From Minisyncoccota bacterium (lineage in GTDB: Bacteria > Patescibacteriota > Minisyncoccia > Phycocordibacterales > SBAW01): a stretch of DNA of 64,000 nucleotides. The stretch is taken from contig DASZRD010000005.1 in the NCBI GenBank assembly GCA_035549255.1, forward strand, positions 58 through 64,057. Direction: 5' to 3'. The notes under the pieces are model-generated. The model did no database searches, was not told the DNA's origin, and worked only from the letters and a program-made list of their open reading frames with translations. This document shows positions 42,892 through 62,411 of this stretch, piece by piece (within the stretch, counting starts at the first letter, position 1; each line of letters opens with the position of its first letter). The translations under genes were made by a program, and so were the position numbers.

Positions 42892-42897
42892 GTCCTC

Positions 42898-47317: not shown

Positions 47318-47341
47318 ATCTCGCGGAGGTCTTGATATGCA

Positions 47342-48508
47342 ATGAACAACGCACTGGGAGCAGCAACATTGATAGCAGGGGTCGCGGTCGGCGGCATGGG
47401 CCTCGTCGCCGCCTTTATCGCGATTGCTTGCGGGATCGTGACGCTCTTGTGGTGGTGGCTGCGGGAACACAAGCGGCCGCTCTCGCTGCGCCGCTTCAAT
47501 CAGAACCCGATCCTCGGCCCTGACCCCAGCCACTGGTGGGAATCAGAGGCGGTATTCAATCCTGCGGCGTTCACCGCCGACGGGAAGGTGCACATCCTCT
47601 ACCGCGCCATGGGGCGCGACGGCATTTCGCGCATCGGCTACGCTTCGAGCGAAGACGGCGTTCGCTTTACCCGCTTGCCGTATCCGGTCTACTCGCCCGA
47701 CCGGGGCTTCGGGGTCCCGAGGACCGATCGCGTCTACGGGCCGCTCTCCTACAGCCAGACGCACTACGCCTCCGGCGGCGGATGGGGCGGCATCGAGGAC
47801 CCGCGGGCCATCAAGATCGACGGCAAGCTCTACATGAGCTTCGTCGCCTTCGACGGTTGGGGCTTCGTGCGCATGGCGCTTACCTCGATGCCGCTGCCGA
47901 AGTTCCTCAACAAAGACTGGCAATGGAAGAAAGCGGCGTTCCTTTCGCCGCCGAACGAGATCCACAAGAACTGGGTCCTCTTCCCCGAGCGCGTGGGCGG
48001 CAGGTATGCGGTGCTCCACAGCATTACGCCGAAGATCTCGATCGAGTACGTCGATTCGCTCGAGAGCTTCGACGACGAGGATACCTATATCCACTCTCCT
48101 GGCCGCTCGGGCGGCAGGCCCGGGGAGTGGGATAGCATCGTCCGCGGCGCGGGAGCACCGCCGATCAGGACATCGGAAGGATGGCTTCTGCTCTATCACG
48201 GCATGGACGCCAACAATCAGGGTATTGGCTACAAAGTGGGTGCTATGCTGCTCGACCTTGAAGACCCGACCCGCGTGCTCTATCGCAGCTCGCAGCCGAT
48301 ACTGGTCCCGAGCGAATGGTACGAGAATGACTGGAAGCCCGGCGTCATCATCGCGACCGGCGCGGTGGTTATCGGCGACGATCTGATGGTCTACTACGGC
48401 GGCGGCGACAAGTACGTCGCTGCTGCGCGCGCCAATCTGCGCGACTTCCTGCGAAGGCTCAAGTACGACGAGCAGGCCGAGCTCGAGCCGGTGAAGCTCC
48501 AGGTATAA
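47342..48508 (+). CDS. glycoside hydrolase family 130 protein (mannoside phosphorylase-like), membrane-anchored
   Basis: N-terminal TM; GH130 fold motifs (FNPAAF ... ILYRAMG ... GIEDPR ... LLYHG). Confidence 0.8.
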   Translation: MNNALGAATLIAGVAVGGMGLVAAFIAIACGIVTLLWWWLREHKRPLSLRRFNQNPILGPDPSHWWESEAVFNPAAFTADGKVHILYRAMGRDGISRIGYASSEDGVRFTRLPYPVYSPDRGFGVPRTDRVYGPLSYSQTHYASGGGWGGIEDPRAIKIDGKLYMSFVAFDGWGFVRMALTSMPLPKFLNKDWQWKKAAFLSPPNEIHKNWVLFPERVGGRYAVLHSITPKISIEYVDSLESFDDEDTYIHSPGRSGGRPGEWDSIVRGAGAPPIRTSEGWLLLYHGMDANNQGIGYKVGAMLLDLEDPTRVLYRSSQPILVPSEWYENDWKPGVIIATGAVVIGDDLMVYYGGGDKYVAAARANLRDFLRRLKYDEQAELEPVKLQV

Positions 48509-48520
48509 TACACGAGCAAT

Positions 48521-50422
48521 ATGTACGTTATCAGACGCAGCTCGCATAACCCCATCATCACGCCCATGGCCGACCGCCAATGGGAGGCGCGCGGCACGTT
48601 CAATCCCTCACCGGTCAAGAAAGGCCCGATCACGCACATCCTCTACCGCGCGCTCGGCCGCCCCGACGCGCTCATGACGCCCGCGGGTATCTCAACCATC
48701 GGAAAAGCACTCTCGATTGACGGCAAGCACTTCCAGAACCGCCGCCAATTCATCGTGCCGACCGAGGAGTGGGAAAAATTCGGCTGCGAGGACCCGCGCG
48801 CCACGTTCTTCGAAGGCAAATATTATATCTTTTATACCGCCCTCGGCGGTATGCCCTTCGGGGCGGGCAATATCAAGGTTGCGTGCGCGATATCGAAGGA
48901 TCTCGAGTCCATCGATGAGAAGCATCTCATCACCCCGTTTAACGCCAAGGCGATGGCGCTCTTCCCCGAGCGCGTGGGCGGCAAGATCACCGCGATCGTG
49001 ACCGCGCACACCGACGAGCCGCCCGCGAAGATTTCTATCGTGCAGTGCGACAAGATCGAAGATCTGTGGGATCTCGCCTTCTGGGAGAAGTGGCACGCCA
49101 ACCTCGACGATCACCGCATCAACCCCTTGCGGTTCGACCATGACCACGTCGAAGTCGGCTCCGCGCCGATCTGGACCAAGGACGGCTGGCTGATCTTCTA
49201 CTCGTACATCCAAAATTACTTCGGCGGCGGGGAGCGCGTGTTCGGCATCGAGGCGCTGCTGCTCGACCTCGACGACCCGCGGCAGATCGTCGGCCGCACG
49301 AAGGGCCCCATCATGGTCCCGGAAGAGATTTACGAGCGCTACGGCGAGGTCCCCAATATCGTCTTTCCTTCCGGCGCGCTGCTCAACAAGAACGGCCGCG
49401 TCGATATCTACTACGGCGGCGCGGACACGGTCTGCGCGCGCGCTTCTCTTAATCTCCCCGACCTCCTCTCGGCGATGATACCCTCGCGCCGCGAAGACTT
49501 GGCCGTCCGCGCCAAGGAGAATCCGATCCTCTCGCCTATCCCCGACCATGCGTGGGAGAGCAAAGAGGTCTTCAACGCCGCCGCGATCGACATCGACGAG
49601 ACCGTGCATATCCTCTATCGCGCGATCGGCGAAGACGGGGTTTCGCGCGTGGGCTATGCCACGAGCAAAAACGGCATCAAGATTACCGAGCGCCTCCCGG
49701 AGCCTATCTACGGGCCGCGCGCCGACTTCGAATCGCGCGGCTGCGAAGACCCTAGAGTGACCCGCATCGGCACTACTATATATATGGTCTATACCGCCTT
49801 CGACGGGAAGAACCCTTGGCGCGCGGCCATGACCTCGATATCGGTCAAGGACTTTCTCGCGCGCAAATGGGACAAATGGGCGCCGCCTCAGCTCATCACC
49901 CCCGACCCGGTGCAGGACAAGGACACGTGCATCTTCCCCGAGCAGATCGGCGGGCAGTACATGCTGCTCCACCGCATCGACCCCATGATGTGCGCGGATT
50001 TCCTCGATACGCTCGACTTTACGAAGAGCAGGCTCTCGCGCTGCATCGAGATTATGGGTCCGAGAGCGGGCATGTGGGATAGCAAAAAGATCGGCGTCGC
50101 CGGGCCGCCGATCGAGACTTCCAAAGGCTGGCTTCTGATCTACCACGGCGTATCGAAGACCGGCACCTACCGGCTCGGCGCAGTGCTGCTCGACGAGAAA
50201 AACCCCTCGATCGTGATCTCGCGCAGCGTCGACACCATCTTCGAGCCGATCGAGGAGTACGAGCGTACGGGCGTCGTCAACAACGCGGTCTTCTCCTGCG
50301 GCGCGGTCGTGCGCGGCGACACAATGTACGTCTATTACGGCGGTGCGGATACGGTACTTGGCGTCGCCAAGATCTCCCTCAAGAAACTCCTCAAGATTTT
50401 GCTCCCAGAGAACCTCGAGTAA
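48521..50422 (+). CDS. tandem GH130-domain protein (two mannoside-phosphorylase-like modules)
   Basis: Two repeats each carrying FNP..V..ILYRA.G, CEDPR, GWL.IYHG and YYGGAD blocks. Confidence 0.85.
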   Translation: MYVIRRSSHNPIITPMADRQWEARGTFNPSPVKKGPITHILYRALGRPDALMTPAGISTIGKALSIDGKHFQNRRQFIVPTEEWEKFGCEDPRATFFEGKYYIFYTALGGMPFGAGNIKVACAISKDLESIDEKHLITPFNAKAMALFPERVGGKITAIVTAHTDEPPAKISIVQCDKIEDLWDLAFWEKWHANLDDHRINPLRFDHDHVEVGSAPIWTKDGWLIFYSYIQNYFGGGERVFGIEALLLDLDDPRQIVGRTKGPIMVPEEIYERYGEVPNIVFPSGALLNKNGRVDIYYGGADTVCARASLNLPDLLSAMIPSRREDLAVRAKENPILSPIPDHAWESKEVFNAAAIDIDETVHILYRAIGEDGVSRVGYATSKNGIKITERLPEPIYGPRADFESRGCEDPRVTRIGTTIYMVYTAFDGKNPWRAAMTSISVKDFLARKWDKWAPPQLITPDPVQDKDTCIFPEQIGGQYMLLHRIDPMMCADFLDTLDFTKSRLSRCIEIMGPRAGMWDSKKIGVAGPPIETSKGWLLIYHGVSKTGTYRLGAVLLDEKNPSIVISRSVDTIFEPIEEYERTGVVNNAVFSCGAVVRGDTMYVYYGGADTVLGVAKISLKKLLKILLPENLE

Positions 50423-50453
50423 TCATCTGAGCACGTCGTCCACTCGCTAGATT

Positions 50454-51233
50454 ATGAACTTCAAGCCAAAACTCGTCGCGTTCGACCTCGACGGCACGCT
50501 TGCGGAGAGCAAGCGCCCGATTACCGCCGAGGTTGGCGAGCTCCTCACCGAATTGCTCCAGAAGCTGCCAGTCGCTATCATGTCGGGCGCCTCATTTGAG
50601 CAATTCCAGACGCAGGTCTTGCCGCAGATACCCGAGACGGCGCGCTTTGAGCGCCTCTACCTGTTCCCGACCAACGCCGCGCAGTGCTACATACACCGCG
50701 GATCAGGATGGCACCTCGCATATGATCGCTCGTTCAACAGCTTCGAGAAGGGGCGCATCATGCAGGCGCTCAAGGAGGCTCTCGCGGAGCAGGGCCTCGG
50801 GGACGAGTCGGCGCATCCGCAGGAATGGGGGCCGAGGATCGAGGATCGCGGCGCGCAGATCGCCTTCTCCGCGCTGGGGCAGAAAGCGCCCGTTGACCAA
50901 AAGCAGCTCTGGCATGACGCGCACGAATCCGAGCGCAAGGCGCTGCGCGACTCTCTTGCGCGGCGGCTACCCGACTTCTCGGTGCTCGAGGGCGGCCTCA
51001 CGACCGTCGATATCACCCAGAAGGGCGTCGACAAGGCCTACGGCATCCGCAAGCTCGTCGAGCTTGCCGACGTATCGGTTTCCGAGATGCTGTATGTCGG
51101 CGACGCGCTCGAAGAAGGCGGCAATGACTCGGTCGTCATCGATACGGGCGTACACACCCACGAGGTATTCGGCCCCGACGAGACTATTGCCCTCATCAAC
51201 AGCGTTCTTGACGCTCCGCGCGCCGGCCGTTAA
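50454..51233 (+). CDS. HAD-IIB phosphatase/mutase of the eukaryotic-type phosphomannomutase family
   Basis: FDLDGTL, VDITQKGVDKAYGI (like PMM DVFPKGWDKTY), GDALEEGGNDSVV (like PMM GD..GGNDYE). Confidence 0.75.
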   Translation: MNFKPKLVAFDLDGTLAESKRPITAEVGELLTELLQKLPVAIMSGASFEQFQTQVLPQIPETARFERLYLFPTNAAQCYIHRGSGWHLAYDRSFNSFEKGRIMQALKEALAEQGLGDESAHPQEWGPRIEDRGAQIAFSALGQKAPVDQKQLWHDAHESERKALRDSLARRLPDFSVLEGGLTTVDITQKGVDKAYGIRKLVELADVSVSEMLYVGDALEEGGNDSVVIDTGVHTHEVFGPDETIALINSVLDAPRAGR

Positions 51234-51236
51234 GTC

Positions 51237-53198
51237 TTAGATCGATCCGATCGCCTGGTTTAGCGTCACGACCTTGATGCCGCTTTGCTTAATGTAATTG
51301 ACCAATGACTGCAAGAAGCTCGGCGTAATCGCGTATTCATCTCCGCCGCTTTGGAGCACGTCGTGGATCTCGAGGATAAGGAGCCGCTTGTCGGCAACCG
51401 CCTGGTCGATCTCGGCTTCGAGCGAAGCAAGCGATGTCGATGAGTCAACACGAATGTCATCGAGGTTATAGCGCGGGGCCCCGGGCTCGTTGAGGCCGTA
51501 GTAGCTGCCGCGCGCGGCGCTGTAGCCGGCAGCAGCCACCATCGCGTCGGTCGAGGGGCTGCGGTCGCCATAGGGATACACGAAGGTAGTCGGCGTGATG
51601 CCCTGTTTTACAAGGTCGCTATACGAGCCGGCGATCTCCTTCTGCGCCTGCGCGGACGTCAGCGTGGTGAGGTACGGATGCGTCTGCGTGTGGCCGCCGA
51701 TCTCGAAGCCCTGCGACGCGAGGTTCTTGATCTGCGCCCAGGTCATATACCCGCTGTCGCCGCTCCCCGGCTCGGAGGTAATGATGTAGAAGCTCGCTCT
51801 CATGCCCGCGGCATTGAGTATCGGCAGCGCGTTCTGATACTGCGACAAGTCGCCGTCATCAAAGGTAAGTGCCACCATGCCGCTCGGGAGCGGGTTCTGG
51901 GGGTTGGCGGTGAGCGAAGCATTATCGATCGTAAGCGTGCCGACTGCCGCGATCGTGTGAAGCACCGTGAGCGATACCGCGCCCGTTGGCACGGTGACCT
52001 GCGCGGTGAGCGTCTGCCACGTGCCATTGGTTGCCGGAGCATCAGCGACCCAATCGTACTGATACGTGCCATCACTCATGAGGTACTCGACCGTAACATT
52101 GTCTTTGAGCGTCGAATTGTAATCGTCGGTGAACGTATAGATCGTGTGGCTCGATACCGGCACATGGTCGAAGTCCCACTTGGCGTCGCCCGAGGAGTAT
52201 TTGGTGATAGCCACCTGCGCCGCCTTGCCGCCCCCCTTGCCGGCGACCGGATAGGTAAACTTTACGTTCATCGTGCCCCAGTAATCGGCATTCCATCCGG
52301 TCGGGTTATTGGCCGTGCCCGCTTCAAGGTTGCCGTTAGCGATGAGGTTGGGACCGTTCGGCTGAGTCGGCGGAGTCGGAGGCGCCGGCTGCACGACGGT
52401 AACCGTGACGCTTGAGGTCGCAACACCCGCAGGATTCGTTGCAGTAAGCGTGTACGTCGTGGTCTGGGTTGGCGTTACCTGTTTGCTCGCGCCCGTCACG
52501 ATACCGACATTCTGGTCGATGCTGGTCGAAGACGCGTTGCTGACATTCCACGAGAGCGTGACCTGCTGGCCCGCAACGATAGTGCTGCTTGATGTGACAA
52601 ACGAGTTGATGAGGGGCTTCTGCTGCACCGGCGGCGGAGGCGGCGTAGAAGTGCTGGCCGCCTCGGTAAGCGAGTACTGATCGACTTCGACGTAACCAAT
52701 ACTCTTGAGCTCATGCGCGAAGCGCACCTTGGTGTAACCGCTCGGGATCGTGACCGTCGCGCTGAATTGCTGCCAGGCGCCCGTGCCCGAGACCGTACCG
52801 AGCGTCTGGGTAACGGAGCTGCCGTTATTCTTCGTGAAGATCGCAATCACATTCACCGACACGTTCGAGAGCGAGTAGCCCGAGAAGAGGTACGACTTAC
52901 CCGCTGCGACGCTCGCGGCGGGAGACTGCCAGTACGCGTCGCCGCTGTTCTTGTACTTGGTGATCTGCGCCTTGACGGCGTTCCCGCTGAATCCCTTGAC
53001 CGGATAATTGAATGAGACGCTGATATTAGAGCCGCTATGCTCGGTATTCCATCCCGAGGTGCCGTTGTCGAGAGAAGGGTTGGCGATAAGATTGGGTCCG
53101 CCCGCTATCGCGGTCCCGCCTATAAAAAGCACCGCTGCCGCGCATGCGGCGATAAGGATTCCTGCGGAACGTCCTGGATTTTTCATACTGCTATGCAT
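51237..53198 (-). CDS. secreted multidomain polysaccharide deacetylase (CBM-like and Ig-like domains plus C-terminal NodB domain)
   Basis: Signal anchor, two CBM4/9-like modules (NPSLDNGTSGWN, NGNLEAGTANNPTGWN), Ig-like domains with PPPP linkers, NodB motifs (ALTFDDGD, EIGGHTQTHP). Start trimmed to ATG 53198; the track ORF runs into the upstream gene. Confidence 0.8.
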   Translation of the reverse strand: MHSSMKNPGRSAGILIAACAAAVLFIGGTAIAGGPNLIANPSLDNGTSGWNTEHSGSNISVSFNYPVKGFSGNAVKAQITKYKNSGDAYWQSPAASVAAGKSYLFSGYSLSNVSVNVIAIFTKNNGSSVTQTLGTVSGTGAWQQFSATVTIPSGYTKVRFAHELKSIGYVEVDQYSLTEAASTSTPPPPPVQQKPLINSFVTSSSTIVAGQQVTLSWNVSNASSTSIDQNVGIVTGASKQVTPTQTTTYTLTATNPAGVATSSVTVTVVQPAPPTPPTQPNGPNLIANGNLEAGTANNPTGWNADYWGTMNVKFTYPVAGKGGGKAAQVAITKYSSGDAKWDFDHVPVSSHTIYTFTDDYNSTLKDNVTVEYLMSDGTYQYDWVADAPATNGTWQTLTAQVTVPTGAVSLTVLHTIAAVGTLTIDNASLTANPQNPLPSGMVALTFDDGDLSQYQNALPILNAAGMRASFYIITSEPGSGDSGYMTWAQIKNLASQGFEIGGHTQTHPYLTTLTSAQAQKEIAGSYSDLVKQGITPTTFVYPYGDRSPSTDAMVAAAGYSAARGSYYGLNEPGAPRYNLDDIRVDSSTSLASLEAEIDQAVADKRLLILEIHDVLQSGGDEYAITPSFLQSLVNYIKQSGIKVVTLNQAIGSI

Positions 53199-53232
53199 AC
53201 GTATTAATAATGATTTGATAACGCTGACAGGA

Positions 53233-54522
53233 CTAATCTCTCCCAGTACCCGGCTCAACCGTGTAGGACTTGAGCGTATGCGGTGAAGCGTACGGGTTCG
53301 GGTCCCACGTCTCGAAGCCGACCGTACCCGAATTCTGCAGGCTCGGGAGATCGGCGGCGAGCACCACTTGCCCGCCGATGAGGCACGACAACCGGCTGCC
53401 TTCGATATCGGCGCCCATATCGACACCCTCCCACGGGGAATCCTGGCGTACGGGAAGACTCGGCGATTGAGATATGAATTGCGAGACGCCGTTTGATACC
53501 TGATAAATCTGCACAGTCTGGCCGTAGCGCGAGAACGCGCACGAGGCGAAGTTGCCATCGTCGCGCATGCGCACCAGACGCGAGAAGACGCTTGTGAGGC
53601 CCCAGTCGACCGTCGTATCGACTTTATAATCGACCCAGTCCTTGCCGCCGCGGAACATGGTCATCGAGCCGGTGGTGCTCGCGGCGGCGGAGGGGCCGGT
53701 CTCGATAGAGCCGCTCTCCCCCGGCCCGAAGAAGCCGAAATACGTAAACCACTTGTCGAGAGAATCCGACGACGGAGAGAAGGTATATGGAAGCGTCGCG
53801 GGCGTGGCGGTCGCGAAGGGGTCGAAGGGCTGCGGCCCGGTCGCGACCGGCGGGTACCAGGGGGAATGAGGCGCATCCGAAGAGACCAGGCGTACTTCGT
53901 CGATATAGGCAGACCCCGGATTCTCCGCGCTCACGCTGAACCCAGTGAGCTCTTGGGGGGTCGTGGAACCGACGGAGAAATTGGCGAGCGGGACGGTAAT
54001 CTGCTGCCACTCCCCGGGCGCCAGCGCGCCCGACGCGGCATACCACGAGAGGGACTGGCGGCCGATCGAATTGCCCTGCGCGTCGTAGATATCGAGATAA
54101 AGGTCCCCCACTGCCGCATCGGGGCGGACATACAGCGAGATCGCGCTATACGGCGCCGCATCGGCCGCTGGCCCCTGCATACCGACGCTCCCGCCGGCCG
54201 CGTCGAAGGCCGCCTTGATCGACGCCGGCCCGGCGGCATACTCATCAGTCGCGCGCCAATTGGCGCTCGCGTGCCAAGTCCAGCTATCGTAGCGCAGCGG
54301 CAGCGCATCCTGGTAAAAATAGCCCGAATTAAGCGATACAGCGCCTGAGAGAAGCGATGAGGCGAAAGGATCTCGGCCGCTCTGGTACGAAACGCCCAGC
54401 GCCGCGAGCAAGTCCCCCGGCTGCGTGCGCACATAAAAGAGCGAGAGCGCCGAGGCGATGCCCGCGAGCGCCACGGCGAAGAATGCGCACCAGACTATTC
54501 TCCAAAAGCGGTCGACAATCAT
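53233..54522 (-). CDS. hypothetical membrane-anchored extracytoplasmic protein, between the synthase and the secreted deacetylase
   Basis: N-terminal TM then a 400-aa beta-rich domain; 4-nt overlap with the upstream gene, so likely co-transcribed. Confidence 0.65.
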   Translation of the reverse strand: MIVDRFWRIVWCAFFAVALAGIASALSLFYVRTQPGDLLAALGVSYQSGRDPFASSLLSGAVSLNSGYFYQDALPLRYDSWTWHASANWRATDEYAAGPASIKAAFDAAGGSVGMQGPAADAAPYSAISLYVRPDAAVGDLYLDIYDAQGNSIGRQSLSWYAASGALAPGEWQQITVPLANFSVGSTTPQELTGFSVSAENPGSAYIDEVRLVSSDAPHSPWYPPVATGPQPFDPFATATPATLPYTFSPSSDSLDKWFTYFGFFGPGESGSIETGPSAAASTTGSMTMFRGGKDWVDYKVDTTVDWGLTSVFSRLVRMRDDGNFASCAFSRYGQTVQIYQVSNGVSQFISQSPSLPVRQDSPWEGVDMGADIEGSRLSCLIGGQVVLAADLPSLQNSGTVGFETWDPNPYASPHTLKSYTVEPGTGRD

Positions 54523-57083
54523 AATAAGGTAGGCCGGGCCTCGGTCGGCGCAATCGAAGCGGAGGTCTCGGCGGTACGCGCCTCATCCGGAATAAGCGAG
54601 GCGTGCAGAGCGCCCGGAAGCTGCGGGGAGACCTCCGCGATCGTAAGCGGGGACGGGACCGGCACGAGGATGTCGCTTTGATAGAACCGCTTCGTCTCCC
54701 CCGCCTTGCGGAACTTATTCCAGCCCGCGCCGCTGCCCTCGATCGCGCGGATGACGCCGCGCATGACACTAAAGTAGAGAAGCTGCCGGTAGACCACCCG
54801 CTGCAGGGGCACGCCGATCATGAGGCGGCCCGCGCCGGGCTCCTTCCAGACGCCCCAGGCGGCATAGGCCATGTCGAAGGCGGTAAATAAGAGGAACGGC
54901 ACGAGAAGCGTGCGCATCTGGCCGAAAAGGAGGCCGAATACGAACGCCGCGTCAGTGAAGGGGTACGCGAGCGGCAGCAGGATATTGTAGATAAACACGT
55001 TGGGAAGCACGATAAGGGTCATGGGCGAGAACGGCCGCTCGAGCGCGACGCGCTTGTGCTTCCAGACGCATTGCATGGTGCCATAGACCCAGCGGAAGCG
55101 CTGCTTGAGGAAATTCTTTACCGTATGCGGCGTCTCGGTGTAGGCGATGGCCTGCGGCTCATAGACGACGCGCTTTCCCGAGCGCAGCACGGTGAGCGTC
55201 ATGTCCTGGTCCTCGACCAGCGTATCGGTCGAAAAGCCACCGAATTGCATGAGATACGACTTGCGCCACGCGCCCGCGGGCCCGGGCACGATGCCGACCG
55301 CGCCGATAGTCGAGAACGCGCGCTTGTCGATGTTCTGGCCGATCGCGTATTCGAGGGTCTGGAAAATGTCGAGCATGCGGCGGCTGCCCGTGGTGCGGAC
55401 CTTCCCCGCGACCGCGCCCACCCGCGGGTCGCTGAAGTGCTTTACGAAGTGCGCGAGCGCCCGGCGCTCAAGCACAGCGTCGGCGTCGAGAACCGCGATG
55501 ATATCGTACTTCGCGTGCTTGATGCCGATATTGAGCGCGCGGGCCTTGCCGCCGTTCTCCAGGCTCATGAGGCAGATATCGTCGTGCGGATATGCCTCGA
55601 TGACGTTGCGGACTTCCTGCGCGGTTTTGTCATATGAGCCATCGTCGAGCACGATAATCTCGCGCTTGGGGTACGAGCTGCGAATGACGCTCTCGACGGT
55701 CGCGGCGATATTCTCCTCCTCGTTATAGGCGGGGATAAGCACGGATACGCCTGCGACCTCGCGCACCTCGGGAATGATCTCCTTATAGAGGCCGCGCATG
55801 CGGCCGTACATGATGAGCGAGATGAGCGACAGCGAGCGGACGCCGACAAGCGCGAGCGTGAAGATCGCGAGCCCCATAAGGCCGCGGTAGATGATCGGGA
55901 AGAAATATATATAGAGGCTGCGCATGGCTTCGCCCAGCCCCAAGAGCGCGATGACCGCCCATGCGCTCCAGCCCGCGGCCGCCCCAGGGGCGGCCGCGGG
56001 CGCCGCTGCGAGCGCGGACTCGAGCGACATCGAGTGGATAAGGTTGCGGGTCGCCTGGTCGGCCTTGCCGGCGCGGGACGGGTCGGGGTTGCCCGAATCG
56101 ACAAGCTTGTTGGCGGTCTGAAAGTTGAGCAGCGCCGCGCGCGTCGCTGCGTCGAATACGCCGGTAAGCGCGTACGGGTCGAGGTACTTCTGCATATAAA
56201 GGAACCATTGGAGCTGCGATACCGCGCCGCCGGTTGTGGCATCAGTCGCGCCGAGCGCAAGCGTCGAAGGAAGCGAGATCGTCGTAGGCGGCGTCAGGAG
56301 CGAGGAGAGCGGCACGACGCTGTAGCCGTGGTCTTTGAGATAGCCGAGAATCGCAGGCAGGGCCTTGGCGGTCGCCACGTCCTCATGAAGGAGGATGATG
56401 TGGCCGTTGGGTTTCTCCGCAAGCGCGCGGTCAAGGTCAGCGACCATTTGCGGCGTCGTAGTCGCATACCACTTGGTCGGATCGATGTCGGCACCCACCG
56501 GCAGATACCCGAGCTCGAGGGACCACAGGAGGTCTTTGGGCGGCGGCACATAAGGGTTGAGGGTCGGGTCGGACCCGACGCCGGAGAGATACGGCGGACG
56601 GTAGAAGAGCGGCTGCTGCCCCGTGATCTGCGAGATAAGATACCCGGTCGAGTTGAGCTCGAGCGCAAGGCGCTTGTAGGAAGACTGCGCGTCCCGGGCA
56701 TGCGTGAAGGAAAGGTTCCCGACCGTAAAGCCGTCATCGCTCGCCTCCTTGACCAAGTCGGGCCGCGTGAGCACATCCTTTCCTATATAGAAGAACGTTG
56801 CCGGCACACCCTCCTTCGATAGTTCGTTGAAGAAGAGCTGCGACGCATCGGGCGTCGGACCGTCGTCTATCGTGAGCGCGACCTTGTCGGCATTCGCCGC
56901 GCTGAAGTAGTAGTGATAGCGCTCGGCGATATCCGCATACGGAAGCGAGGCGCGCCCGGCGGTAGTGCTCGCGAGGCCGAACAAAAAAATAAGAACGAAC
57001 GAAAGGAGAAAGAATATGAAAAAGACCGCAGCGGCCCTGAAATATAGTTTGCGTCGTTTAGAGGTATCGAAAAATACAGGCAT
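54519..57083 (-). CDS. fused polysaccharide deacetylase (NodB) / peptidoglycan-binding domain / processive family-2 glycosyltransferase (PgaC/IcaA-like synthase)
   Basis: N-terminal TM; NodB (ALTIDDGPT, HIILLHED); PG_binding_1-like (AVSQLQWFLYMQKYL...GVFDAATRAALLNFQ); TM block; GT2 (VLIPAYNEEENI, DADAVLE, QRFRWVYG = QxxRW); C-terminal TMs. Confidence 0.85.
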   Translation of the reverse strand: MPVFFDTSKRRKLYFRAAAVFFIFFLLSFVLIFLFGLASTTAGRASLPYADIAERYHYYFSAANADKVALTIDDGPTPDASQLFFNELSKEGVPATFFYIGKDVLTRPDLVKEASDDGFTVGNLSFTHARDAQSSYKRLALELNSTGYLISQITGQQPLFYRPPYLSGVGSDPTLNPYVPPPKDLLWSLELGYLPVGADIDPTKWYATTTPQMVADLDRALAEKPNGHIILLHEDVATAKALPAILGYLKDHGYSVVPLSSLLTPPTTISLPSTLALGATDATTGGAVSQLQWFLYMQKYLDPYALTGVFDAATRAALLNFQTANKLVDSGNPDPSRAGKADQATRNLIHSMSLESALAAAPAAAPGAAAGWSAWAVIALLGLGEAMRSLYIYFFPIIYRGLMGLAIFTLALVGVRSLSLISLIMYGRMRGLYKEIIPEVREVAGVSVLIPAYNEEENIAATVESVIRSSYPKREIIVLDDGSYDKTAQEVRNVIEAYPHDDICLMSLENGGKARALNIGIKHAKYDIIAVLDADAVLERRALAHFVKHFSDPRVGAVAGKVRTTGSRRMLDIFQTLEYAIGQNIDKRAFSTIGAVGIVPGPAGAWRKSYLMQFGGFSTDTLVEDQDMTLTVLRSGKRVVYEPQAIAYTETPHTVKNFLKQRFRWVYGTMQCVWKHKRVALERPFSPMTLIVLPNVFIYNILLPLAYPFTDAAFVFGLLFGQMRTLLVPFLLFTAFDMAYAAWGVWKEPGAGRLMIGVPLQRVVYRQLLYFSVMRGVIRAIEGSGAGWNKFRKAGETKRFYQSDILVPVPSPLTIAEVSPQLPGALHASLIPDEARTAETSASIAPTEARPTLL

Positions 57084-57245
57084 ACAGCCGAGACAGCATT
57101 GTTGCTGCGGCTGGTTCCCCCGGTTATGCGGTTATTGCGCACGCATACTGGATGATGCGCGCACACCAAAAGTATAGCGCATATCGCAGAGGTGTATAGC
57201 GTAAACCGGTGTGGAAATCAGAATCGTATATATTGGAGTACAGAT

Positions 57246-57325
57246 ATAAAAAAGAACAAGGTCGAGGCGGGCCCAAAACCCTGGGAAACCAGCCATAAGC
57301 TGGAGCTTTTGGGCCCACCTCGACC
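57246..57325 (-). promoter_or_regulatory. intrinsic-terminator-like hairpin inside the 5' leader of the synthase gene (candidate attenuator/riboswitch expression platform)
   Basis: 19-bp inverted repeat GGTCGAGGCGGGCCCAAAA / TTTTGGGCCCACCTCGACC (one mismatch) at 57260..57278 and 57307..57325, followed on the minus strand by TTGTTCTTTTTTAT. Lies about 165 nt upstream of the synthase ATG and is preceded by a second hairpin plus U-run (57359..57390). Confidence 0.45.
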
Positions 57326-57623
57326 TCGTATCTTTTGGAAGAACGCCTTCCCGTAAAAACAAATCGAAGCTCTTCTTCGGAGTAAAGAGCTTCGCCGCGC
57401 ATACTACTCGAGGCAGATTTCTTGTATAGATTGTCAGCGCAAAATTTTCGTCGCCGAATGTCGCGTGAGAGTTGCGAAAATAAAAATTTGTATCGCGCTA
57501 TCGCACGTCTCTTGTAATTTGAAATGCGCGTGCTATTTTGCCTCCTACCAAAGCAGCTCTGGGAAACTGCCGTGGGACGTGTTTTTCTCTTGTCCTTTAT
57601 TCATTAGGTATTAACCAGAGCTT

Positions 57624-60600
57624 ATGTCTCTCATTAAAGAGGGCGCGCTCGCGCGCCTGGGACGTGCTGTGTTCTCTCTTACTAACGTTCGTGCAAGCGG
57701 ATTGGTCGTGTCCGCGCTTTTTGCATTGGCAGTTGTCGTAGCGCCGACCGCAGCAATGGCTGCAACATTCACCAGCATTACTGCATCCGATGCTTCAGGT
57801 ACTTATGGAGGAACAGTAAACCTTTCCGCAACTCTACAATATTATTCTGGTGGTTTTCACGCACTAACCGGAAAAACAGTCACGTTCAAACTCAATGGAA
57901 CGACAGTTGGTGCTACTACTACTGACAGTAGCGGTAAAGCAACTCTAAATAACGTCAGTTTGAGTGGCATTAACGCAAATACCTATAATTCTGGAGTCTC
58001 AGCAAGCTTTGCGGGTGATTCTACCTATTCATCAGATAGTGATACTTCAAAACTCACGGTCTCGAAGGCTAACCCGACCCTCTCGGTAACAAACTCCCCG
58101 CAGGCTTACACTGGCTCGCCTATTGCGGCGGCAGTGAGTGGCTCGGTTGCTGGCACAGTAAGCAATGTAAAGTACAACAACTCGTCAACAGTTCCCACAA
58201 ACGCAGGAACGTACCCGATTACCGCAAGCTTTGCGCCGACCGACACCACCAACTACAACTCTCTCTCAAGCGCCTCAGCTGGTAGCTTTGTCATCACCGG
58301 CGCTCCTACCAAGGCAAATACACTTACTGTTATTACCTCCGACACGCCGGATCCTTCGAATACGAATGCGGCTTACACGGTCAACGTGAGCGTCGGGCGC
58401 CTCTCTGGTACCAATAGCCCGAGCGGCACCGTAACGGTATCGGATGGCTCGGCGACTTGCGCCGCTACCCTCTCCGGCTCTTCGGCAACCACGACCGGCT
58501 CCTGCCAGCTCACCTCAACTACGTCTGGCTCCAAGACGCTTACGGCGACGTACAGCGGCGATACCAACTTCAATACGAGCTCGGGCACCGCGTCGCACAC
58601 GGTTAATAACGTCGCAGGTCCTGACTGCAGCAACTTCGTCGACCTCGCACACAACCTTATTAACAATCCCTGCCTTGAAACCGGCTCTGCATGGAATGGC
58701 ACGACCGGCGGCCCCGATAACTGGTCCTTCTATTCTGCAGGCGTTACGGGCGGCGCGACATATCCGGCCACGTCGTACCATTCGGGTACGGGTGCAGCCG
58801 AGGTTCATATAAGCGCGATCAATTCCCCTGCCGATCCGAATAATCCTCCGCAGGCGCAATGGGGATTCAATCCAGTCAACAACATTACTCCAGGCGCCAA
58901 TTACCAGTTCAGCTTCTGGTACAACTCCAACGTCGATAGCGAAGTAGACGCCGAGTACGACACGGCGAGCGGCCCGATCTACACGCAAGTGCGCTCCAAC
59001 CTCCCATCGACCAATGGCGCATGGGTGCAGTTCACGACGAACATCATCCCGCCGGCCGGAACGACAGCGATGTCTATAACGCCGCTTATCAGCAAGGTCG
59101 GCAATCTCACGGTCGACGACTTCTCGCTTGTGCAGGAAGCCGATCCCAATGCCTTTGCGACGGGCATGGTATCGCTCAACTTCGATGACGGCCTTGCAAG
59201 CTTCTGGAATTACGCGACCAGCACGCTCAACGCGGCGGGCATCAAGGCGACCGAATACATCATTACCGGCGCATCCGGCAGCGATGTGACAAATCCCAAT
59301 CCGAGCAGCGGCTACCTCTCGCGCACGCAGATTCAGGCACTCGCTGCAGCGGGTTACGACATTGGCGACCACACCACCGACCATGCCGACCTCACCAACC
59401 TGAGCTCGGGCCAGACGCTTACCTCCGAAATAAATAACTCGGTAGCGGCGCTCAACAATATCGGCATCTCGTCCGTCAGCACCATCGCTTATCCGTACGG
59501 AACATACAATCAGGCGGTTGAAAGCCAAGTGCTGCATGTTCCGCTTCTTGCGGGCCGCAGCGTCGATGACGGCTTCAATGACAAGAAGACTGATCCATAT
59601 GCTCTGCGCATCAAGGAAGTCTTCGATACAACATCAGTATCACAAGTAGAAAGCTGGATTGATGAGGCTAATGCGAATAATGAGTGGCTGATCCTGCTCT
59701 TCCACACCGTGGACAAAGACAGTGCAAACGGCCTGGATTGCACCAGCGGTACGCCTAACACCAACAATCCTCAGGAGTGCGTCACCACTGCCAATCTCCA
59801 GGCGATTGTAAGCCACCTCAACAGCACCCACACGCACACCGTTACCATGTCGCAAGGCATCGGGATCATGAACGGCACCTCCGTCATCGATCAGACTGCG
59901 CCGACCGTCACTGTTCCTTCGAACATAAGCGTTCCCGCAACGTCGCAAGCCGGCGCAACCGTAACCTTCTCCGTCACAGCAACCGATAATATCGACCTCA
60001 ACCCTTCGATCCTCTGCATGCCGGCATCGGGCTCGGTATTCGCGTTCGGGACCACGACAGTCGGCTGCTCGGCCACAGACGCGAGCGGCAATAAGTCTGC
60101 TACTTCGACCTTCGACGTAGGCGTCTATAAGCCGACCCTTACTATCACCGCCGACAATCAAACAACAACCTTCGGCTATACCACTGAGCCCACATACACT
60201 GTTACGATTACCGGCTTCCAGGGTACCGATGATGCAACTGTTCTTACAACGCAGCCGACCTGCTCGGTCGCGGTTGATCACAGTGCGGTCGGCACCTACC
60301 CGATCACTTGTTCCGGGGCGGCCGATACCGACGGCATCTACGTATTCAATTACGTAAATGGCACGCTCACGGTCGCGCCGGTAGATGGCACGGTGGTGCT
60401 GAACAATCTCACCCAGACCTATGACGGCACGCCTAAGGCGGTCGCAACCTCGACTGGCGATGTCGTACTCTCGGTTACCGTTACATACGCGGGCACGGGC
60501 GGCACAACCTACGCGCTCTCGACGGTGCCTCCGACCGATGCGGGTACCTATGACGTGGTCGCAACCATCGACGCGGGCCAGAGCTACAGCGGCTCGGCCG

Positions 60601-62411
60601 AAGGCACACTCACAATCGCCAAGGCGGCGGTCGACGGGGCAGAGAGCCTCAACCAGTCTATCGATGTCGTTGAGAATTCGACCAACAATCCGATCACGCT
60701 CGGCACGCTCGACTCGCTCACTTCGCCCGCATGGACGATCGCGACGCAGCCGACCAGCGGCACGATCGGCGGCACCGCTCCGGCGGTCACGTATACGCCG
60801 GCGGCGGACTTCTACGGCAGCGACTCATTCTCCTTCACGGTCGGCGACGCCAACCACGTAAGCGGCACCGCCACGGTGAATATCATGGTGCACCCGGCTC
60901 CGGGCTGCCCGAGCGGCTACACTGCTAACGGCACCGGCGGCTGTGACCCGGCCAATACAACGGTACCGGTCGTCTGCCCCAACGGCACGGCGTACAACGC
61001 CACCGACAATATGTGCGAGGATACTCAGACTTCGGTTGCGCCGACCGACACGCTCACCTGCCCTGATGGATCGACGCTCGACGGCACCCAGTGCGACACG
61101 ACGACCACGACGACCCAAAGCCCGACCTGCGGCGACGGCAGCGAGTTCTCCTACGACGCCGACAACAATACCTGCGTCCCGACCGACCCGAACGATACGA
61201 CCACGCCTCCGTCCCCGACATGCGCGCAGGGCATGCTCAACGGACAGAACCAGTGCGAGGTCGACACAACTACGCAGACCCCAGCCCAGGACAACCTTAC
61301 CTGCCCCGACGGCTACACGCTCAACAGCAACGAGTGCGACCCGGCACCGATCGCCCCGACTGCGCCGACTTGCCCGGCCAACTCGACCGACAACGGTGAC
61401 GGCACGTGCGCCACGCAGACGATCGCCCTGCAGTGCATTACGGGCTACCATCTCGACGACGCCACCGGCATGTGCGATGCCGACGTGCTCTATGCCATCA
61501 CCGCTTCGACGGGAGACAACGGCTCCATCAGCCCTTCGGGCTCGGTCTCGGTCGTCGAGCACGCGTCGCAGAGCTTCTCTATTGCGGCCAACTCCGGCTA
61601 CCACATTAGCGACGTAGTGGTCGATGGCTCATCGGTCGGCGCGGTCTCAAGCTACAGCTTCTCTGACATCGGCGCGGACCATACGATCTCGGCATCCTTC
61701 GCGCAGGATGCGGCCCCGGCAGCAGTCGGCGGCGGCGGAGGTGGCGGAGGCGGTGGCATCCTCTACTACGGCAATGTGTCCATCAATAATGGCGCGGCCG
61801 AGACCAGCTCGCCGAACGTGACACTCACCGTCACGGCGACCGGGGGCCTCAGCCAGGTATGGCTCTCCAACGATTCTTCCTTCTCGACCGGCACCTGGCA
61901 GCCGATCCAGAGCCCCATCCAGTGGACGCTTGCGTCGGGCGCAGGTCAGAAGACCATCTATGCCCGCTTCGGCATCGCAAGCAGCACGTATGCCAACGCG
62001 CAGGCGAGCATCCAGCTGACCTCCGGCGGCGTTGTCCTTGGCGCATCGATCCAGATCCTCACTGACGCGCAGATCGCCGCGATCCTCAACCTTCTCACCT
62101 CGTTCAACGCCGACCAGTCCGTCATCGACTCGGTCAACGCGGCGCTCCATGGCGAAGCGACAAGCGGCACTGGCGGCAGCGCGACCTCAGACGGGTTCGT
62201 CTTCACACAGACCCTCCAGGTAGGCTCGACCGGCAACCAAGTCACCGAGCTCCAGAAGCGCCTTACGGCCGAAGGCGTCTACTCGGGACCGATCACCGGC
62301 TACTTCGGAGCACTCACCAAGGCAGGCGTCATCGCTTACCAAGCGAAGAAGGGTCTTCCGCAAGTTGGCATTGTAGGACCGATGACGCGCGCAGCGCTCA
62401 ACGGGCAATAA
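57624..62411 (+). CDS. giant multidomain surface protein (1595 aa): Ig-like repeats, NodB polysaccharide deacetylase, HYR domain, Cys-pair tandem repeats, poly-Gly, C-terminal peptidoglycan-binding domain
   Basis: Signal/TM anchor; Big-like domains; NodB (SLNFDDGL, DIGDHTTDHAD); HYR-like (APTVTVPSNISVPATSQAGATVTFSVTATD...); six CP.G-x-C Cys-pair modules; GGGGGGGGG; PG_binding_1 (GSTGNQVTELQKRLTAEGVYSGPITGYFGALTKAGVIAYQ). Confidence 0.9.
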   Translation: MSLIKEGALARLGRAVFSLTNVRASGLVVSALFALAVVVAPTAAMAATFTSITASDASGTYGGTVNLSATLQYYSGGFHALTGKTVTFKLNGTTVGATTTDSSGKATLNNVSLSGINANTYNSGVSASFAGDSTYSSDSDTSKLTVSKANPTLSVTNSPQAYTGSPIAAAVSGSVAGTVSNVKYNNSSTVPTNAGTYPITASFAPTDTTNYNSLSSASAGSFVITGAPTKANTLTVITSDTPDPSNTNAAYTVNVSVGRLSGTNSPSGTVTVSDGSATCAATLSGSSATTTGSCQLTSTTSGSKTLTATYSGDTNFNTSSGTASHTVNNVAGPDCSNFVDLAHNLINNPCLETGSAWNGTTGGPDNWSFYSAGVTGGATYPATSYHSGTGAAEVHISAINSPADPNNPPQAQWGFNPVNNITPGANYQFSFWYNSNVDSEVDAEYDTASGPIYTQVRSNLPSTNGAWVQFTTNIIPPAGTTAMSITPLISKVGNLTVDDFSLVQEADPNAFATGMVSLNFDDGLASFWNYATSTLNAAGIKATEYIITGASGSDVTNPNPSSGYLSRTQIQALAAAGYDIGDHTTDHADLTNLSSGQTLTSEINNSVAALNNIGISSVSTIAYPYGTYNQAVESQVLHVPLLAGRSVDDGFNDKKTDPYALRIKEVFDTTSVSQVESWIDEANANNEWLILLFHTVDKDSANGLDCTSGTPNTNNPQECVTTANLQAIVSHLNSTHTHTVTMSQGIGIMNGTSVIDQTAPTVTVPSNISVPATSQAGATVTFSVTATDNIDLNPSILCMPASGSVFAFGTTTVGCSATDASGNKSATSTFDVGVYKPTLTITADNQTTTFGYTTEPTYTVTITGFQGTDDATVLTTQPTCSVAVDHSAVGTYPITCSGAADTDGIYVFNYVNGTLTVAPVDGTVVLNNLTQTYDGTPKAVATSTGDVVLSVTVTYAGTGGTTYALSTVPPTDAGTYDVVATIDAGQSYSGSAEGTLTIAKAAVDGAESLNQSIDVVENSTNNPITLGTLDSLTSPAWTIATQPTSGTIGGTAPAVTYTPAADFYGSDSFSFTVGDANHVSGTATVNIMVHPAPGCPSGYTANGTGGCDPANTTVPVVCPNGTAYNATDNMCEDTQTSVAPTDTLTCPDGSTLDGTQCDTTTTTTQSPTCGDGSEFSYDADNNTCVPTDPNDTTTPPSPTCAQGMLNGQNQCEVDTTTQTPAQDNLTCPDGYTLNSNECDPAPIAPTAPTCPANSTDNGDGTCATQTIALQCITGYHLDDATGMCDADVLYAITASTGDNGSISPSGSVSVVEHASQSFSIAANSGYHISDVVVDGSSVGAVSSYSFSDIGADHTISASFAQDAAPAAVGGGGGGGGGGILYYGNVSINNGAAETSSPNVTLTVTATGGLSQVWLSNDSSFSTGTWQPIQSPIQWTLASGAGQKTIYARFGIASSTYANAQASIQLTSGGVVLGASIQILTDAQIAAILNLLTSFNADQSVIDSVNAALHGEATSGTGGSATSDGFVFTQTLQVGSTGNQVTELQKRLTAEGVYSGPITGYFGALTKAGVIAYQAKKGLPQVGIVGPMTRAALNGQ
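60904..61487 (+). repeat. tandem array of about six ~30-codon Cys-pair modules (CPxGxxLDGTxCD-like) inside the giant gene
   Basis: Repeated at protein and DNA level (CPSGYTANGTGGCD, CPNGTAYNATDNMCE, CPDGSTLDGTQCD, CGDGSEFSYDADNNTC, CAQGMLNGQNQCE, CPDGYTLNSNECD, CPANSTDNGDGTC, CITGYHLDDATGMCD). Confidence 0.7.

Follow-up and report, generated by a model that had tools for sequence, protein, structure and literature searches.

Proteins that carry a CE4 (NodB) deacetylase domain and a GT2 glycosyltransferase domain in the same chain are already known. MatB of Streptomyces (SCO2962), an experimentally characterised PNAG synthase, has its CE4 domain outside the cell and its GT2 domain inside, with a predicted transmembrane helix between them; its product is dispersin-B-sensitive PNAG and its CE4 domain is PgdA-like (van Dissel et al. 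2018, PMC5972031). Bundalovic-Torma et al. 2020 (PMC7112194) also remarked on the CE4-GT2 fusion. We found at least 596 confirmed stretches/species with such fusions in a one-genome-per-species collection, and at least 7996 fusion proteins at E≤1e-30, so that the architecture described as novel in the initial annotation is both widespread and published. The locus reported here is a real operon of a tiny uncultured CPR/Paceibacterota bacterium, contained in the 64,000 nt stretch that we analysed (the window), and its genuinely unusual part is limited to some CPR-specific details. Among the papers covered by our literature search, none described this module in CPR.

The ORF listing and Pfam confirmed three genes with the proposed domains, all on the minus strand. 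Gene 1 (54519..57083) encodes a fused CE4/PG_binding_1/GT2 membrane synthase of 854 aa, MatB-like; a 'glycosyltransferase' deposited for Candidatus Paceibacterota matches it at 100% identity. Gene 2 (53233..54522), whose start overlaps the gene 1 stop (ATGA), encodes 429 aa with a transmembrane anchor and two beta-sandwich domains, and gene 3 (51237..53198 after correction of its start) encodes ~653 aa with two CBM_4_9-like domains and one CE4. A fourth gene of the module had been left outside the annotated coordinates; it is divergent (57624..62411, plus strand) and encodes a giant secreted CE4/PG_binding_1 surface protein of 1595 aa; a divergently encoded CE4 surface protein is also kept in the related loci L001, L002, L005, L082 and L085. 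Both promoters are presumably located in the 540 nt between gene 1 and the 1595-aa gene (57084..57623), where we found a long hairpin (57249-57336) and a terminator-like one (57365-57394); a search of this region for riboswitches or known RNAs gave sub-threshold miRNA-like hairpin matches only.

In the window, L082 and L083, gene 3 faces a cupin-GH130-GH130-PMM cassette tail-to-tail, PMM and/or GH130 were found near the module in L085 and L087, and in L002 the GH130/PMM cassette was not adjacent to the module. This GH130/PMM/PMI cassette is convergent with the operon and catalytically unrelated to it, yet syntenic. Genes for a BacA/UppP and a DedA/VTT protein are also near the locus. The window lacks a conserved convergent gene ('dsB') that follows the synthase in 9 of 15 CPR relatives; this gene had zero Pfam matches, and a PDB sequence search returned nothing even at E≤10.

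In gene 1, an N-terminal transmembrane helix was placed at aa 12-44 (56952..57050, minus strand) from hydropathy and charge counts, in agreement with a helix at aa 9-43 of the AF2 model, and the KRRK ahead of it predicts a cytoplasmic N-terminus. According to hydropathy and the positive-inside rule, the CE4 and PG_binding_1 domains are predicted to be outside and the GT2 domain inside, in line with the proposal of one membrane protein with these three parts. The extracytoplasmic PG_binding_1-like module is a three-helix segment (aa 281-359, 56007..56243, minus strand) matched by PF01471 at aa 285-335 with 32 bits (cutoff 23) and modelled with pLDDT > 90; the region is carried by 74 of the 86 aligned family members. 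The synthase region (aa 374-805, 54669..55964, minus strand) comprises a transmembrane helix (hydrophobic core aa 394-426), the cytoplasmic GT2 domain proper (aa 446-682; Pfam GT2 models match aa 445-719, E 2e-36), two transmembrane helices within aa 687-745, an amphipathic Arg-rich helix (aa 751-782) and a conserved segment with W788, K790 and G795. All four motifs of processive GT2 synthases were present, namely the UDP-binding D (D481 in LDDGS, 479-483), DxD (DAD, 533-535), (T/V)ED (VED, 623-625) and QxxRW (QRFRW, 661-665), and D481, D533xD535, E624D625 and Q661RFRW665 were invariant in 86 of 86 relatives, in line with the DAD and QRFRW motifs first pointed out for this protein.

The AF2 model of gene 1 (pLDDT 84) places the GT domain between transmembrane and interface helices, resembling solved synthases, and Foldseek ranked PcManGT first (TM 0.75), followed by the Cv and Xl hyaluronan synthases (HAS), BcsA and Chs1; thus the predicted fold matched membrane-integrated synthases. 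The best NCBIfam family was PgaC_IcaA (TIGR03937) with 188.9 bits (E 1.4e-55), about twice the score of the next synthase family (NodC, 99 bits; CelA had 73 bits). E. coli PgaC shared 33% identity with gene 1 and gave 139 bits, compared with 61 bits for BcsA. The relationship with PgaC/IcaA suggested earlier was the best one found, although the score is far below the curated cutoff of this equivalog (422.3 bits), so that the linkage and even the sugar of the polymer are only putative; we know of no sequence signature for linkage. Pfam Chitin_synth_2 also matched (E 9e-11). The closest solved sequence relative was the mannosyltransferase PcManGT, which has 24% identity and lacks QxxRW, and which probably ranked first because there was no PgaC chain among the PDB matches. 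Judged by its motifs and predicted fold, gene 1 is a membrane-integrated GT2 synthase of the processive type, for which polymerisation coupled to translocation is predicted. Only about four transmembrane helices were predicted in gene 1, implying that the channel may need a partner or an oligomer.

The extracytoplasmic CE4 domain of gene 1 (aa 49-263, 56295..56939, minus strand; Polysacc_deac_1 at aa 64-167, E 4e-21), defined with Pfam and an alignment, is degenerate in this genome. Motif 1 (T71-I-D73-D74, with the catalytic base Asp and the metal Asp), motif 3 (R162-P-P-Y165, RxPY) and motif 5 (L231-L-H233, LxH, with the catalytic acid His) are present, and H128 of motif 2 is kept. However, motif 2, H(S/T)xxH, reads L124-S-F-T-H128, with L124 (codon 56712-56714) in place of the first metal-binding His, and motif 4, DxxD(W/Y), reads D201-P-T-K204-W205, with K204 (codon 56472-56474) in place of a buried Asp that tethers the catalytic His; each of these positions has the canonical residue in 81 of 86 relatives. 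In the alignment with SpPgdA, L124 corresponds to H326 (the first His of HSWSH) and K204 to the Asp beside the Trp in DSLDW. The roles of these residues are those given in a review of CE4 enzymes (PMC5855634). Both substitutions were identical in an independent assembly (P0002), and core catalytic residues were substituted in 5 of 12 close relatives versus 3 of 74 distant ones. Of the sister lineages, P0005 lacks D74, H128 and H233, and P0006 lacks D73, D74, H128, R162 and H233. Despite these motif losses the domain is under purifying selection, since dN/dS against an 88%-identical orthologue was 0.085 for the fused CE4 and 0.091 for GT2. We considered whether the losses depended on the extra CE4 genes and rejected this, because L001 has the same four-gene layout and an intact fused CE4.

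Gene 2 indeed encodes a membrane-anchored protein with an N-terminal transmembrane helix, which is its only anchor. A disordered linker leads from this helix to a pair of beta-sandwich domains outside the cytoplasm, at aa ~85-213 and aa ~258-424. The second domain is CBM66/LamG-like, with CBM66 as best structural match (E 2e-9), and it reappears at the C-terminus of ~770-aa CE4 proteins. Zero Pfam or NCBIfam matches were obtained for gene 2. Of the 10 CPR loci fetched in which the synthase includes the PG_binding_1 region, 9 carry gene 2 (10 of 11 counting the window); none of the 5 loci lacking this region has it. Homology of gene 2 to PgaD, IcaD or BcsB was rejected, as comparisons with E. 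coli PgaD and BcsB revealed no similarity, and no small multi-transmembrane ORF of the PgaD/IcaD subunit type was found in the operon.

The length of 773 aa first given for gene 3 belongs only to the mechanical ORF (51237..53558). This model was rejected because six orthologues contain nothing that corresponds to its first 120 codons, which share 326 nt with gene 2; the start is ATG 53198 (653 aa) or 53186 (649 aa), directly ahead of a signal/anchor segment. A CBM_4_9-like domain, a ~80-aa Ser/Thr-rich segment, a second CBM_4_9-like domain and the CE4 domain come next, and Pfam recognised CBM_4_9 and Polysacc_deac_1. The two CBM-like modules proposed earlier are real, being an internal repeat with 35% identity (E 2e-23), but the Ig-like domains could not be confirmed; between the two CBMs lies the Ser/Thr-rich segment, which had no HMM match. 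The CE4 motifs of gene 3 are intact (FDDG / HTQTH / YPYG / LEIHD), and so are those of the 1595-aa protein (FDDG / DHTTDH / YPYG / LLFHT), whose CBM+CE4 module (aa 344-747, 58653-59864, plus strand) is a gene 3 paralogue with 33% identity. That protein also has Big_3_5 repeats, HYR, MBG and Big_9 domains after the CBM+CE4 module, and a C-terminal PG_binding_1 domain (aa 1536-1592, 62229-62399, plus strand). The motif 1 DD, the HxxxH of motif 2 and the motif 5 His are found in both proteins, the catalytic residues are also intact in the six gene 3 orthologues, and the two domains, being motif-complete, are predicted to be catalytically competent. Both lack the motif 3 Arg (YPYG), as do PNAG deacetylases (PMC5855634). 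The best solved relative of the gene 3 CE4 was the PNAG deacetylase IcaB (4wcj, E 2e-14), and BpsB/PgaB and HfsH matched too. Compared with the PgaB/IcaB type, the motif order in gene 3 is canonical and not circularly permuted, the two His are separated by three residues (H-T-Q-T-H) instead of four, and the C-terminal LxH segment aligns to the IcaB N-terminus.

These results together suggest, with a probability that we put at roughly 60%, that the locus provides a monoderm-like CPR bacterium with a synthase-dependent surface polysaccharide, by means of a MatB-like synthase, a PNAG-like polymer, CE4 paralogues and gene 2 as a partner. The cytoplasmic GT-A domain of gene 1 would polymerise UDP-HexNAc, most likely UDP-GlcNAc, into a PNAG-like beta-linked polymer and thread the chain through a channel formed by its own transmembrane and interface helices. 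The chain would exit beside the extracytoplasmic CE4 and PG_binding_1 domains, the latter holding this site to the wall. De-N-acetylation of the nascent chain would be the task of the fused CE4 in most family members; here that domain may be kept as a glycan-handling domain, and de-N-acetylation could fall to the two CBM-tethered CE4 paralogues, that is, the gene 3 product and the wall-bound 1595-aa surface protein, a division of labour that we infer. The lectin-like domains of gene 2, translationally coupled to the synthase, might bind or guide the polymer in a BcsB-like manner. Three CE4 domains in one module indicate an N-acetylated polymer; the product is most likely a partly de-N-acetylated poly-HexNAc and probably PNAG-like.

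The same machinery could instead make a chitin-like beta-1,4-GlcNAc chain, in the style of NodC or chitin synthases, which the CE4 domains would convert into a chitosan-like wall or capsule polymer. The Chitin_synth_2 and NodC matches agree with such a product, as do the similarity of the fused CE4 to beta-1,4-active enzymes (PgdA, chitin deacetylases, the ArCE4A type), the canonical HxxxH, unpermuted order and HfsH match of the gene 3 CE4, and the GH18 (chitinase-family) domain found in the same polypeptide in non-CPR relatives. Yet the PgaC_IcaA score is about double that of NodC, the gene 3 CE4 has IcaB as best solved relative, and the CE4 of MatB is equally PgdA-like although the product is dispersin-B-sensitive PNAG (PMC5972031), so we consider chitin unlikely. 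It is much less probable that the CE4/PG_binding_1 proteins act on peptidoglycan in a PgdA-like way, for lysozyme resistance or wall remodelling, with the GT2 domain glycosylating a lipid carrier or wall polymer and no free exopolysaccharide being made. The PG_binding_1 domains of gene 1 and of the 1595-aa protein, the closeness of the fused CE4 to peptidoglycan GlcNAc deacetylases and the nearby BacA/UppP and DedA/VTT genes would fit this, but the QxxRW and ED motifs and the BcsA/HAS-like membrane-integrated predicted fold do not; the monotopic architecture of GtrB/ArnC/DPMS-type enzymes is absent and their families give far lower scores, a soluble glycan chain is suggested by the CBM_4_9 and CBM66-like modules, and the fusion of CE4 with this GT2 clade is kept in diderms too. 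Similarly improbable is a mannose-containing or otherwise acetylated glycan, with the CE4 domains as O-acetyl esterases (acetylxylan esterases belong to this family; PMC5855634) and the GH130/PMM/PMI cassette in its metabolism. PcManGT is the best PDB match of the GT2 domain in both sequence and fold, and the cassette or parts of it recur near the module; nevertheless, the distant PcManGT without QxxRW is outscored by far by PgaC, the cassette is catabolic in type, convergent and separated from the module in L002, and no GDP-mannose pyrophosphorylase was found among the ORFs examined.

A further question is whether the fused CE4 still works. With one metal ligand (H124L) and the His-tuning Asp (D204K) gone, the domain of this genome is probably a weak or dead enzyme; the first His of motif 2 binds the metal directly, which a Leu cannot do, inactive CE4 proteins without these His are known (PMC5855634), and the additional losses in P0005 and P0006 were independent, which shows that catalysis by the fused CE4 is dispensable in the clade. 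Activity despite L124 and K204, which would give three working deacetylases (at the membrane, secreted and wall-anchored), is nevertheless a minority possibility to be taken seriously, in view of the retained base D73, metal ligands D74 and H128, R162 and acid H233 and of the strong purifying selection. Loss of activity is thus only probable, since some CE4 enzymes are active although their metal triad is incomplete (MurNAc deacetylases) or the motif 4 Asp is missing (PgaB/IcaB) (PMC5855634). We hold only tentatively, and with less conviction, the more specific proposal that the fused CE4 is a pseudoenzyme kept to handle the nascent chain, catalysis being left to the CBM-tethered paralogues, one of them on the wall-bound, adhesin-like 1595-aa protein, and that these, together with gene 2 as a CPR-specific lectin-like partner, build a cationic poly-HexNAc coat by which an episymbiont sticks to its host. 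The initial annotation depended on catalytic Asp and His residues in its NodB domains, and here the outcome was divided: the fused domain lacks a His and an Asp and the two separate CE4 domains are intact.

Many of the tiny and mostly uncultured CPR/Patescibacteria are believed to be attached to other cells, by means that are poorly understood. Across the relatives that we examined, this module stands among the few surface-polymer systems that are conserved in otherwise minimal genomes. Should its product be a PNAG-like adhesin that is partly de-N-acetylated, for which Streptomyces, Staphylococcus and E. coli provide precedents, it would be an obvious candidate for attachment to a host or surface, and WGA or anti-PNAG antibodies could serve as a handle to label or enrich these organisms. 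A fused CE4 that has repeatedly lost catalytic residues and remains under purifying selection is a tidy natural case of an enzyme domain becoming a non-catalytic module. The general view of synthase-dependent exopolysaccharides is unchanged, because the fusion is common and already characterised; new here are the residue losses of the fused CE4, the intact CBM-linked CE4 paralogues and the co-occurrence of gene 2 with PG_binding_1 synthases in CPR.

When compared with known systems, the locus shares with BcsA-BcsB a membrane-integrated QxxRW synthase and a co-encoded, anchored, extracytoplasmic beta-sandwich partner. BcsB is membrane-anchored and has extracytoplasmic carbohydrate-binding beta-sandwich domains; the resemblance of gene 2 to it is an analogy, as gene 2 has no sequence similarity, is anchored at its N-terminus and not at its C-terminus and lacks flavodoxin-like domains, and the gene 1 synthase has no PilZ domain. 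The uncharacterised GH18-CE4-GT2 fusions (~1100 aa) that occur in Bacillus, Aneurinibacillus, Caulobacter, Acidobacteriota and others have the same CE4-TM-GT2 core, with 35-43% identity over aa ~46-798 and the same invariant GT2 and CE4 motifs, but they have GH18 at the N-terminus and lack PG_binding_1, and their loci yielded no homologue of gene 2. A protein search seeded with a truncated member of this group, L056 (labelled Actinomycetota), returned no named Streptomyces protein.

With PgaABCD of E. coli and IcaADBC of Staphylococcus, the locus has in common a processive GT2 synthase and a CE4 de-N-acetylase outside the membrane, PgaC being the best-scoring characterised family and IcaB the closest solved relative of the gene 3 CE4. 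In contrast, there is no PgaD/IcaD-like subunit, PgaA porin or PgaB hydrolase domain here, no c-di-GMP module was detected, and the CE4 domains have unpermuted motifs with HxxxH spacing. The absence of an IcaC/PgaA-type exporter, pointed out in the initial annotation, is no anomaly, since PgaA is an outer-membrane porin and IcaC a modification enzyme. The functional analogy of this synthase-plus-deacetylase locus to ica/pga is supported by the GT2 motifs, the predicted fold and the PgaC scores.

Relative to MatAB, the CPR proteins have PG_binding_1 inserted between CE4 and GT2, the partner is TM-anchored with two lectin-like beta-sandwiches and encoded downstream, two additional CBM-CE4 paralogues are present, the fused CE4 of this genome lacks H124 and D204, and no IcaC-like gene adjoins the operon. 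The likeness, drawn from the published description of MatB (PMC5972031) and not from its sequence, consists of an extracellular CE4 and an intracellular GT2 in one polypeptide, a GT2 domain closest to PgaC and a CE4 domain closest to PgdA and chitin deacetylases, a second gene of unassigned fold alongside the synthase (MatA there, gene 2 here) that is needed or conserved, and a monoderm host without an outer-membrane porin in both cases.

The three long open reading frames proposed in the initial annotation were present, arranged head to tail on the minus strand. The first, gene 1 (54519..57083), encodes 854 aa, and its stop overlaps the start of gene 2 (53233..54522, 429 aa) in a shared ATGA. 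The third, gene 3, had been listed as a 773-aa product, which corresponds to the ORF 51237..53558 and was not borne out, as this ORF overlapped gene 2 by 326 nt. Each of six orthologues starts with a hydrophobic signal/anchor segment and has nothing corresponding to the first 120 codons of this ORF, which puts the true start at ATG 53198 (653 aa) or at 53186. A deposited protein from a Candidatus Paceibacterota (CPR/Patescibacteria) metagenome-assembled genome, encoded on a 177-kb contig, was 100% identical to the gene 1 product and is publicly annotated only as 'glycosyltransferase'.

Pfam found in the single gene 1 polypeptide all three of the modules previously attributed to it, namely a CE4 deacetylase domain (Polysacc_deac_1, aa 64-167), PG_binding_1 (aa 285-335, scoring 32 bits where 23 is the cutoff) and GT2 models at aa 445-719. 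The claimed processive-synthase motifs DAD and QRFRW belonged to a full set (D481, D533-A-D535, E624-D625 and Q661-RFRW-665) that was invariant across 86/86 aligned relatives. The top NCBIfam model was PgaC_IcaA (188.9 bits, E 1e-55, well below its equivalog cutoff of 422), followed by NodC (99) and CelA (73), and in BLASTP E. coli PgaC (33% identity) scored 139 bits versus 61 bits for BcsA. When the AlphaFold2 model (36 relatives as input, mean pLDDT 84) was compared with the PDB using Foldseek, PcManGT was on top (TM-score 0.75) and the best matches were membrane-integrated GT2 enzymes throughout, including the Chlorella-virus and Xenopus hyaluronan synthases, BcsA and yeast Chs1. From hydropathy and the positive-inside rule, the predicted topology has a cytoplasmic N-terminus, a transmembrane helix at 12-44, CE4 and PG_binding_1 outside, a second helix at ~394-426, GT2 inside, two further helices within 687-745 and, again inside, an amphipathic Arg-rich helix followed by a disordered tail. 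Because of these motifs, family scores, structural matches and topology, the GT2 domain was not grouped with the non-processive transferases, in agreement with the processive type originally assigned.

The fused CE4 domain had also been described as a NodB deacetylase, but its catalytic set was incomplete. Alignment to S. pneumoniae PgdA (2c1g) placed Leu124 where motif 2 (HSWSH) has its first metal-binding His, and Lys204 where motif 4 (DSLDW) has its buried Asp, positions occupied by His and Asp, respectively, in 81/86 proteins of the family in each case. Both motif-2 His residues are metal ligands in CE4 enzymes and are absent from inactive CE4 proteins, and the motif-4 Asp tethers the catalytic-acid His (PMC5855634). 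An 88%-identical orthologue from a separate assembly carried both L124 and K204, so that sequencing errors do not account for them. Synthases of sister lineages had changes of their own: H128E and D204T in P0003; D74N, H128A and H233Q in P0005; and D73Q, D74S, H128A, R162S and H233S in P0006. Core CE4 residues were altered in 5/12 relatives at least 60% identical versus 3/74 more distant ones (Fisher p 0.001, uncorrected for phylogeny), and comparison of the window with the 88% orthologue gave a dN/dS of 0.085 in the CE4 domain and 0.091 in the GT2 region. Our reading of these sequences is that catalysis by the fused CE4 has become dispensable in this clade, the domain itself being kept. Its inactivity is suggested rather than proven, since CE4 subfamilies with incomplete motifs can be active, as are those without the metal-binding Asp (MurNAc deacetylases) or without the motif-4 Asp (PgaB/IcaB) (PMC5855634).

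Gene 2 had no match in Pfam or NCBIfam and showed similarity neither to E. coli PgaD nor to BcsB. Its structural model (20 homologues, pLDDT 74) comprised two beta-sandwich domains joined by a disordered linker to an N-terminal transmembrane helix, and came closest in structure to CBM66, a carbohydrate-binding module (E 2e-9, TM-score 0.76), with GH16, galectin and LamG jelly rolls next. A profile searched against 1.8 billion representative proteins retrieved 1129 relatives; the first domain also occurred in proteins of CBM30 and M23-peptidase type, and the second at the C-terminus of ~770-aa Polysacc_deac_1 proteins. We infer that gene 2 encodes a membrane-anchored glycan-binding or glycan-guiding partner, whose role would be analogous to that of BcsB.

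The two CBM-like modules and the NodB domain noticed earlier in gene 3 were found: a signal/anchor segment is followed by two CBM_4_9-like modules that share 35% identity (E 2e-23) and flank a short Ser/Thr-rich segment, and then by a CE4 domain. HfsH was the top NCBIfam model, and the nearest solved relative was the PNAG deacetylase IcaB (4wcj, E 2e-14), with BpsB/PgaB matching too. The CE4 motifs (FDDG, HTQTH and LEIHD) were intact and kept in orthologues, and their order and His spacing were canonical, unlike those of the PgaB/IcaB variants. A second CBM+CE4 module, with intact motifs and 33% identity to its counterpart in gene 3, was carried by a 1595-aa protein encoded divergently from gene 1 (57624..62411). 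This protein also bears a signal peptide, Big_3_5 repeats, HYR, MBG and Big_9 domains and, at its C-terminus, PG_binding_1. Between the synthase gene and this divergent gene lie 540 nt, which contained a long imperfect hairpin (57249..57336), its arms of 30 nt being 83% complementary, and a terminator-like hairpin ahead of a T-run (57365..57394); for neither did Rfam give a family above threshold.

Fifteen CPR loci were compared, nine taken from a one-genome-per-species collection and six from an exact-protein look-up. Among loci encoding a synthase with the PG_binding_1 region, 9/10 had gene 2 following the synthase gene (10/11 including the window), versus 0/5 of the loci without this region. 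The tandem CBM-CE4 gene lay behind gene 2 in the window and in loci L001, L082, L083, L085 and L086, and an upstream divergent CE4-bearing surface protein was encoded in L001, L002, L005, L082 and L085. L001 has the complete four-gene layout and a fused CE4 that is intact, which makes the extra deacetylases older than the decay seen in the window genome. Nine of the 15 loci (L003, L005, L006, L007, L008 and L085-L088; for example L006:7307-7981, minus strand) had, convergent with the synthase and immediately behind it, a gene for an unannotated, TM-anchored secreted domain of ~190 aa, of which the window has no copy. This family shares the motif 'TTxFWVGE ... ENPFYFALPY ... CYGQWxDVGP', had no match in Pfam or, even at E<=10, among PDB sequences, and is a candidate polymer-processing enzyme. 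In L002 and L004 the same slot was occupied by homologues of a 305-aa secreted/anchored protein encoded in the window at 41128..42045 (minus strand), with a Ser/Thr/Pro-rich linker, a ~160-aa Cys-containing C-terminal domain and no Pfam match for its family; in L085 its homologue lay 5 kb upstream of the synthase.

Tail to tail with gene 3, a plus-strand set (46964..51233) encodes a mannose-6-P-isomerase-like cupin (117 aa), two GH130 proteins and a PMM/HAD protein, in form a beta-mannoside phosphorolysis-type cassette. The arrangement recurred in L082 and L083 and partially in L085 and L087. Directly behind the 1595-aa gene lay an OmpR-type response regulator (62569..63264, plus strand), whose ~90% identical homologues in L083 and L085 lay close to the module, beside a histidine kinase in both cases; control of the locus by this regulator is possible. 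A MASE1 hybrid histidine kinase (42781..44982, plus strand), BacA/UppP (44979..45749) and a DedA/VTT protein (45746..46453) were syntenic in L085. Elsewhere in the window, 37082..37272 (minus strand) matched the Rfam group I intron barely at the gathering score (50.1 versus 50) in a stretch of low GC (0.50 versus ~0.59), beside an ORF of 113 aa (37367..37708, plus strand) whose Cys/His pattern is HNH-like; no rRNA or tRNA host gene was identified around it.

Beyond gene and domain anatomy, we infer that the cytoplasmic GT2 would polymerise UDP-HexNAc, most likely the UDP-GlcNAc already present in a peptidoglycan-making cell, and pass the growing chain through the synthase's own membrane channel. 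The chain would emerge beside the CE4 and PG_binding_1 ectodomains, gene 2 could bind or guide it, and CBM-tethered CE4 enzymes would take off part of the N-acetyl groups, giving a cationic, adhesive, wall-associated polymer. A beta-1,6 (PNAG-like) linkage is considered more probable than a beta-1,4 (chitin/chitosan-like) one.

The CE4-GT2 fusion, presented as a novel architecture in the initial annotation, is already known. Streptomyces MatB, with an extracellular CE4 and an intracellular GT2, makes PNAG (PMC5972031), and a survey of exopolysaccharide operons described GT-PgaB fusions (PMC7112194). Related fusions, for the most part GH18-CE4-GT2 proteins of ~1100 aa, are spread over Bacillus, Caulobacter, Acidobacteriota and numerous further groups. 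In Bacillus, Caulobacter and Aneurinibacillus (L042:8591-11950, L018:8621-11977 and L010:8264-11896), the non-CPR relatives of the synthase are triple fusions of ~1100-1200 aa. This very large family (at least 7996 proteins at E<=1e-30) is labelled only 'glycosyltransferase' in public records, and we found in the literature searched no characterisation of the triple fusions and no paper on the synthase/gene 2/CBM-CE4 module in CPR. The CPR version is distinguished by the PG_binding_1 insertion, by a conserved partner with two beta-sandwich, lectin-like domains, by CBM-CE4 paralogues, of which a giant wall-anchored protein carries one, and, in the clade of the window, by the decaying fused deacetylase.
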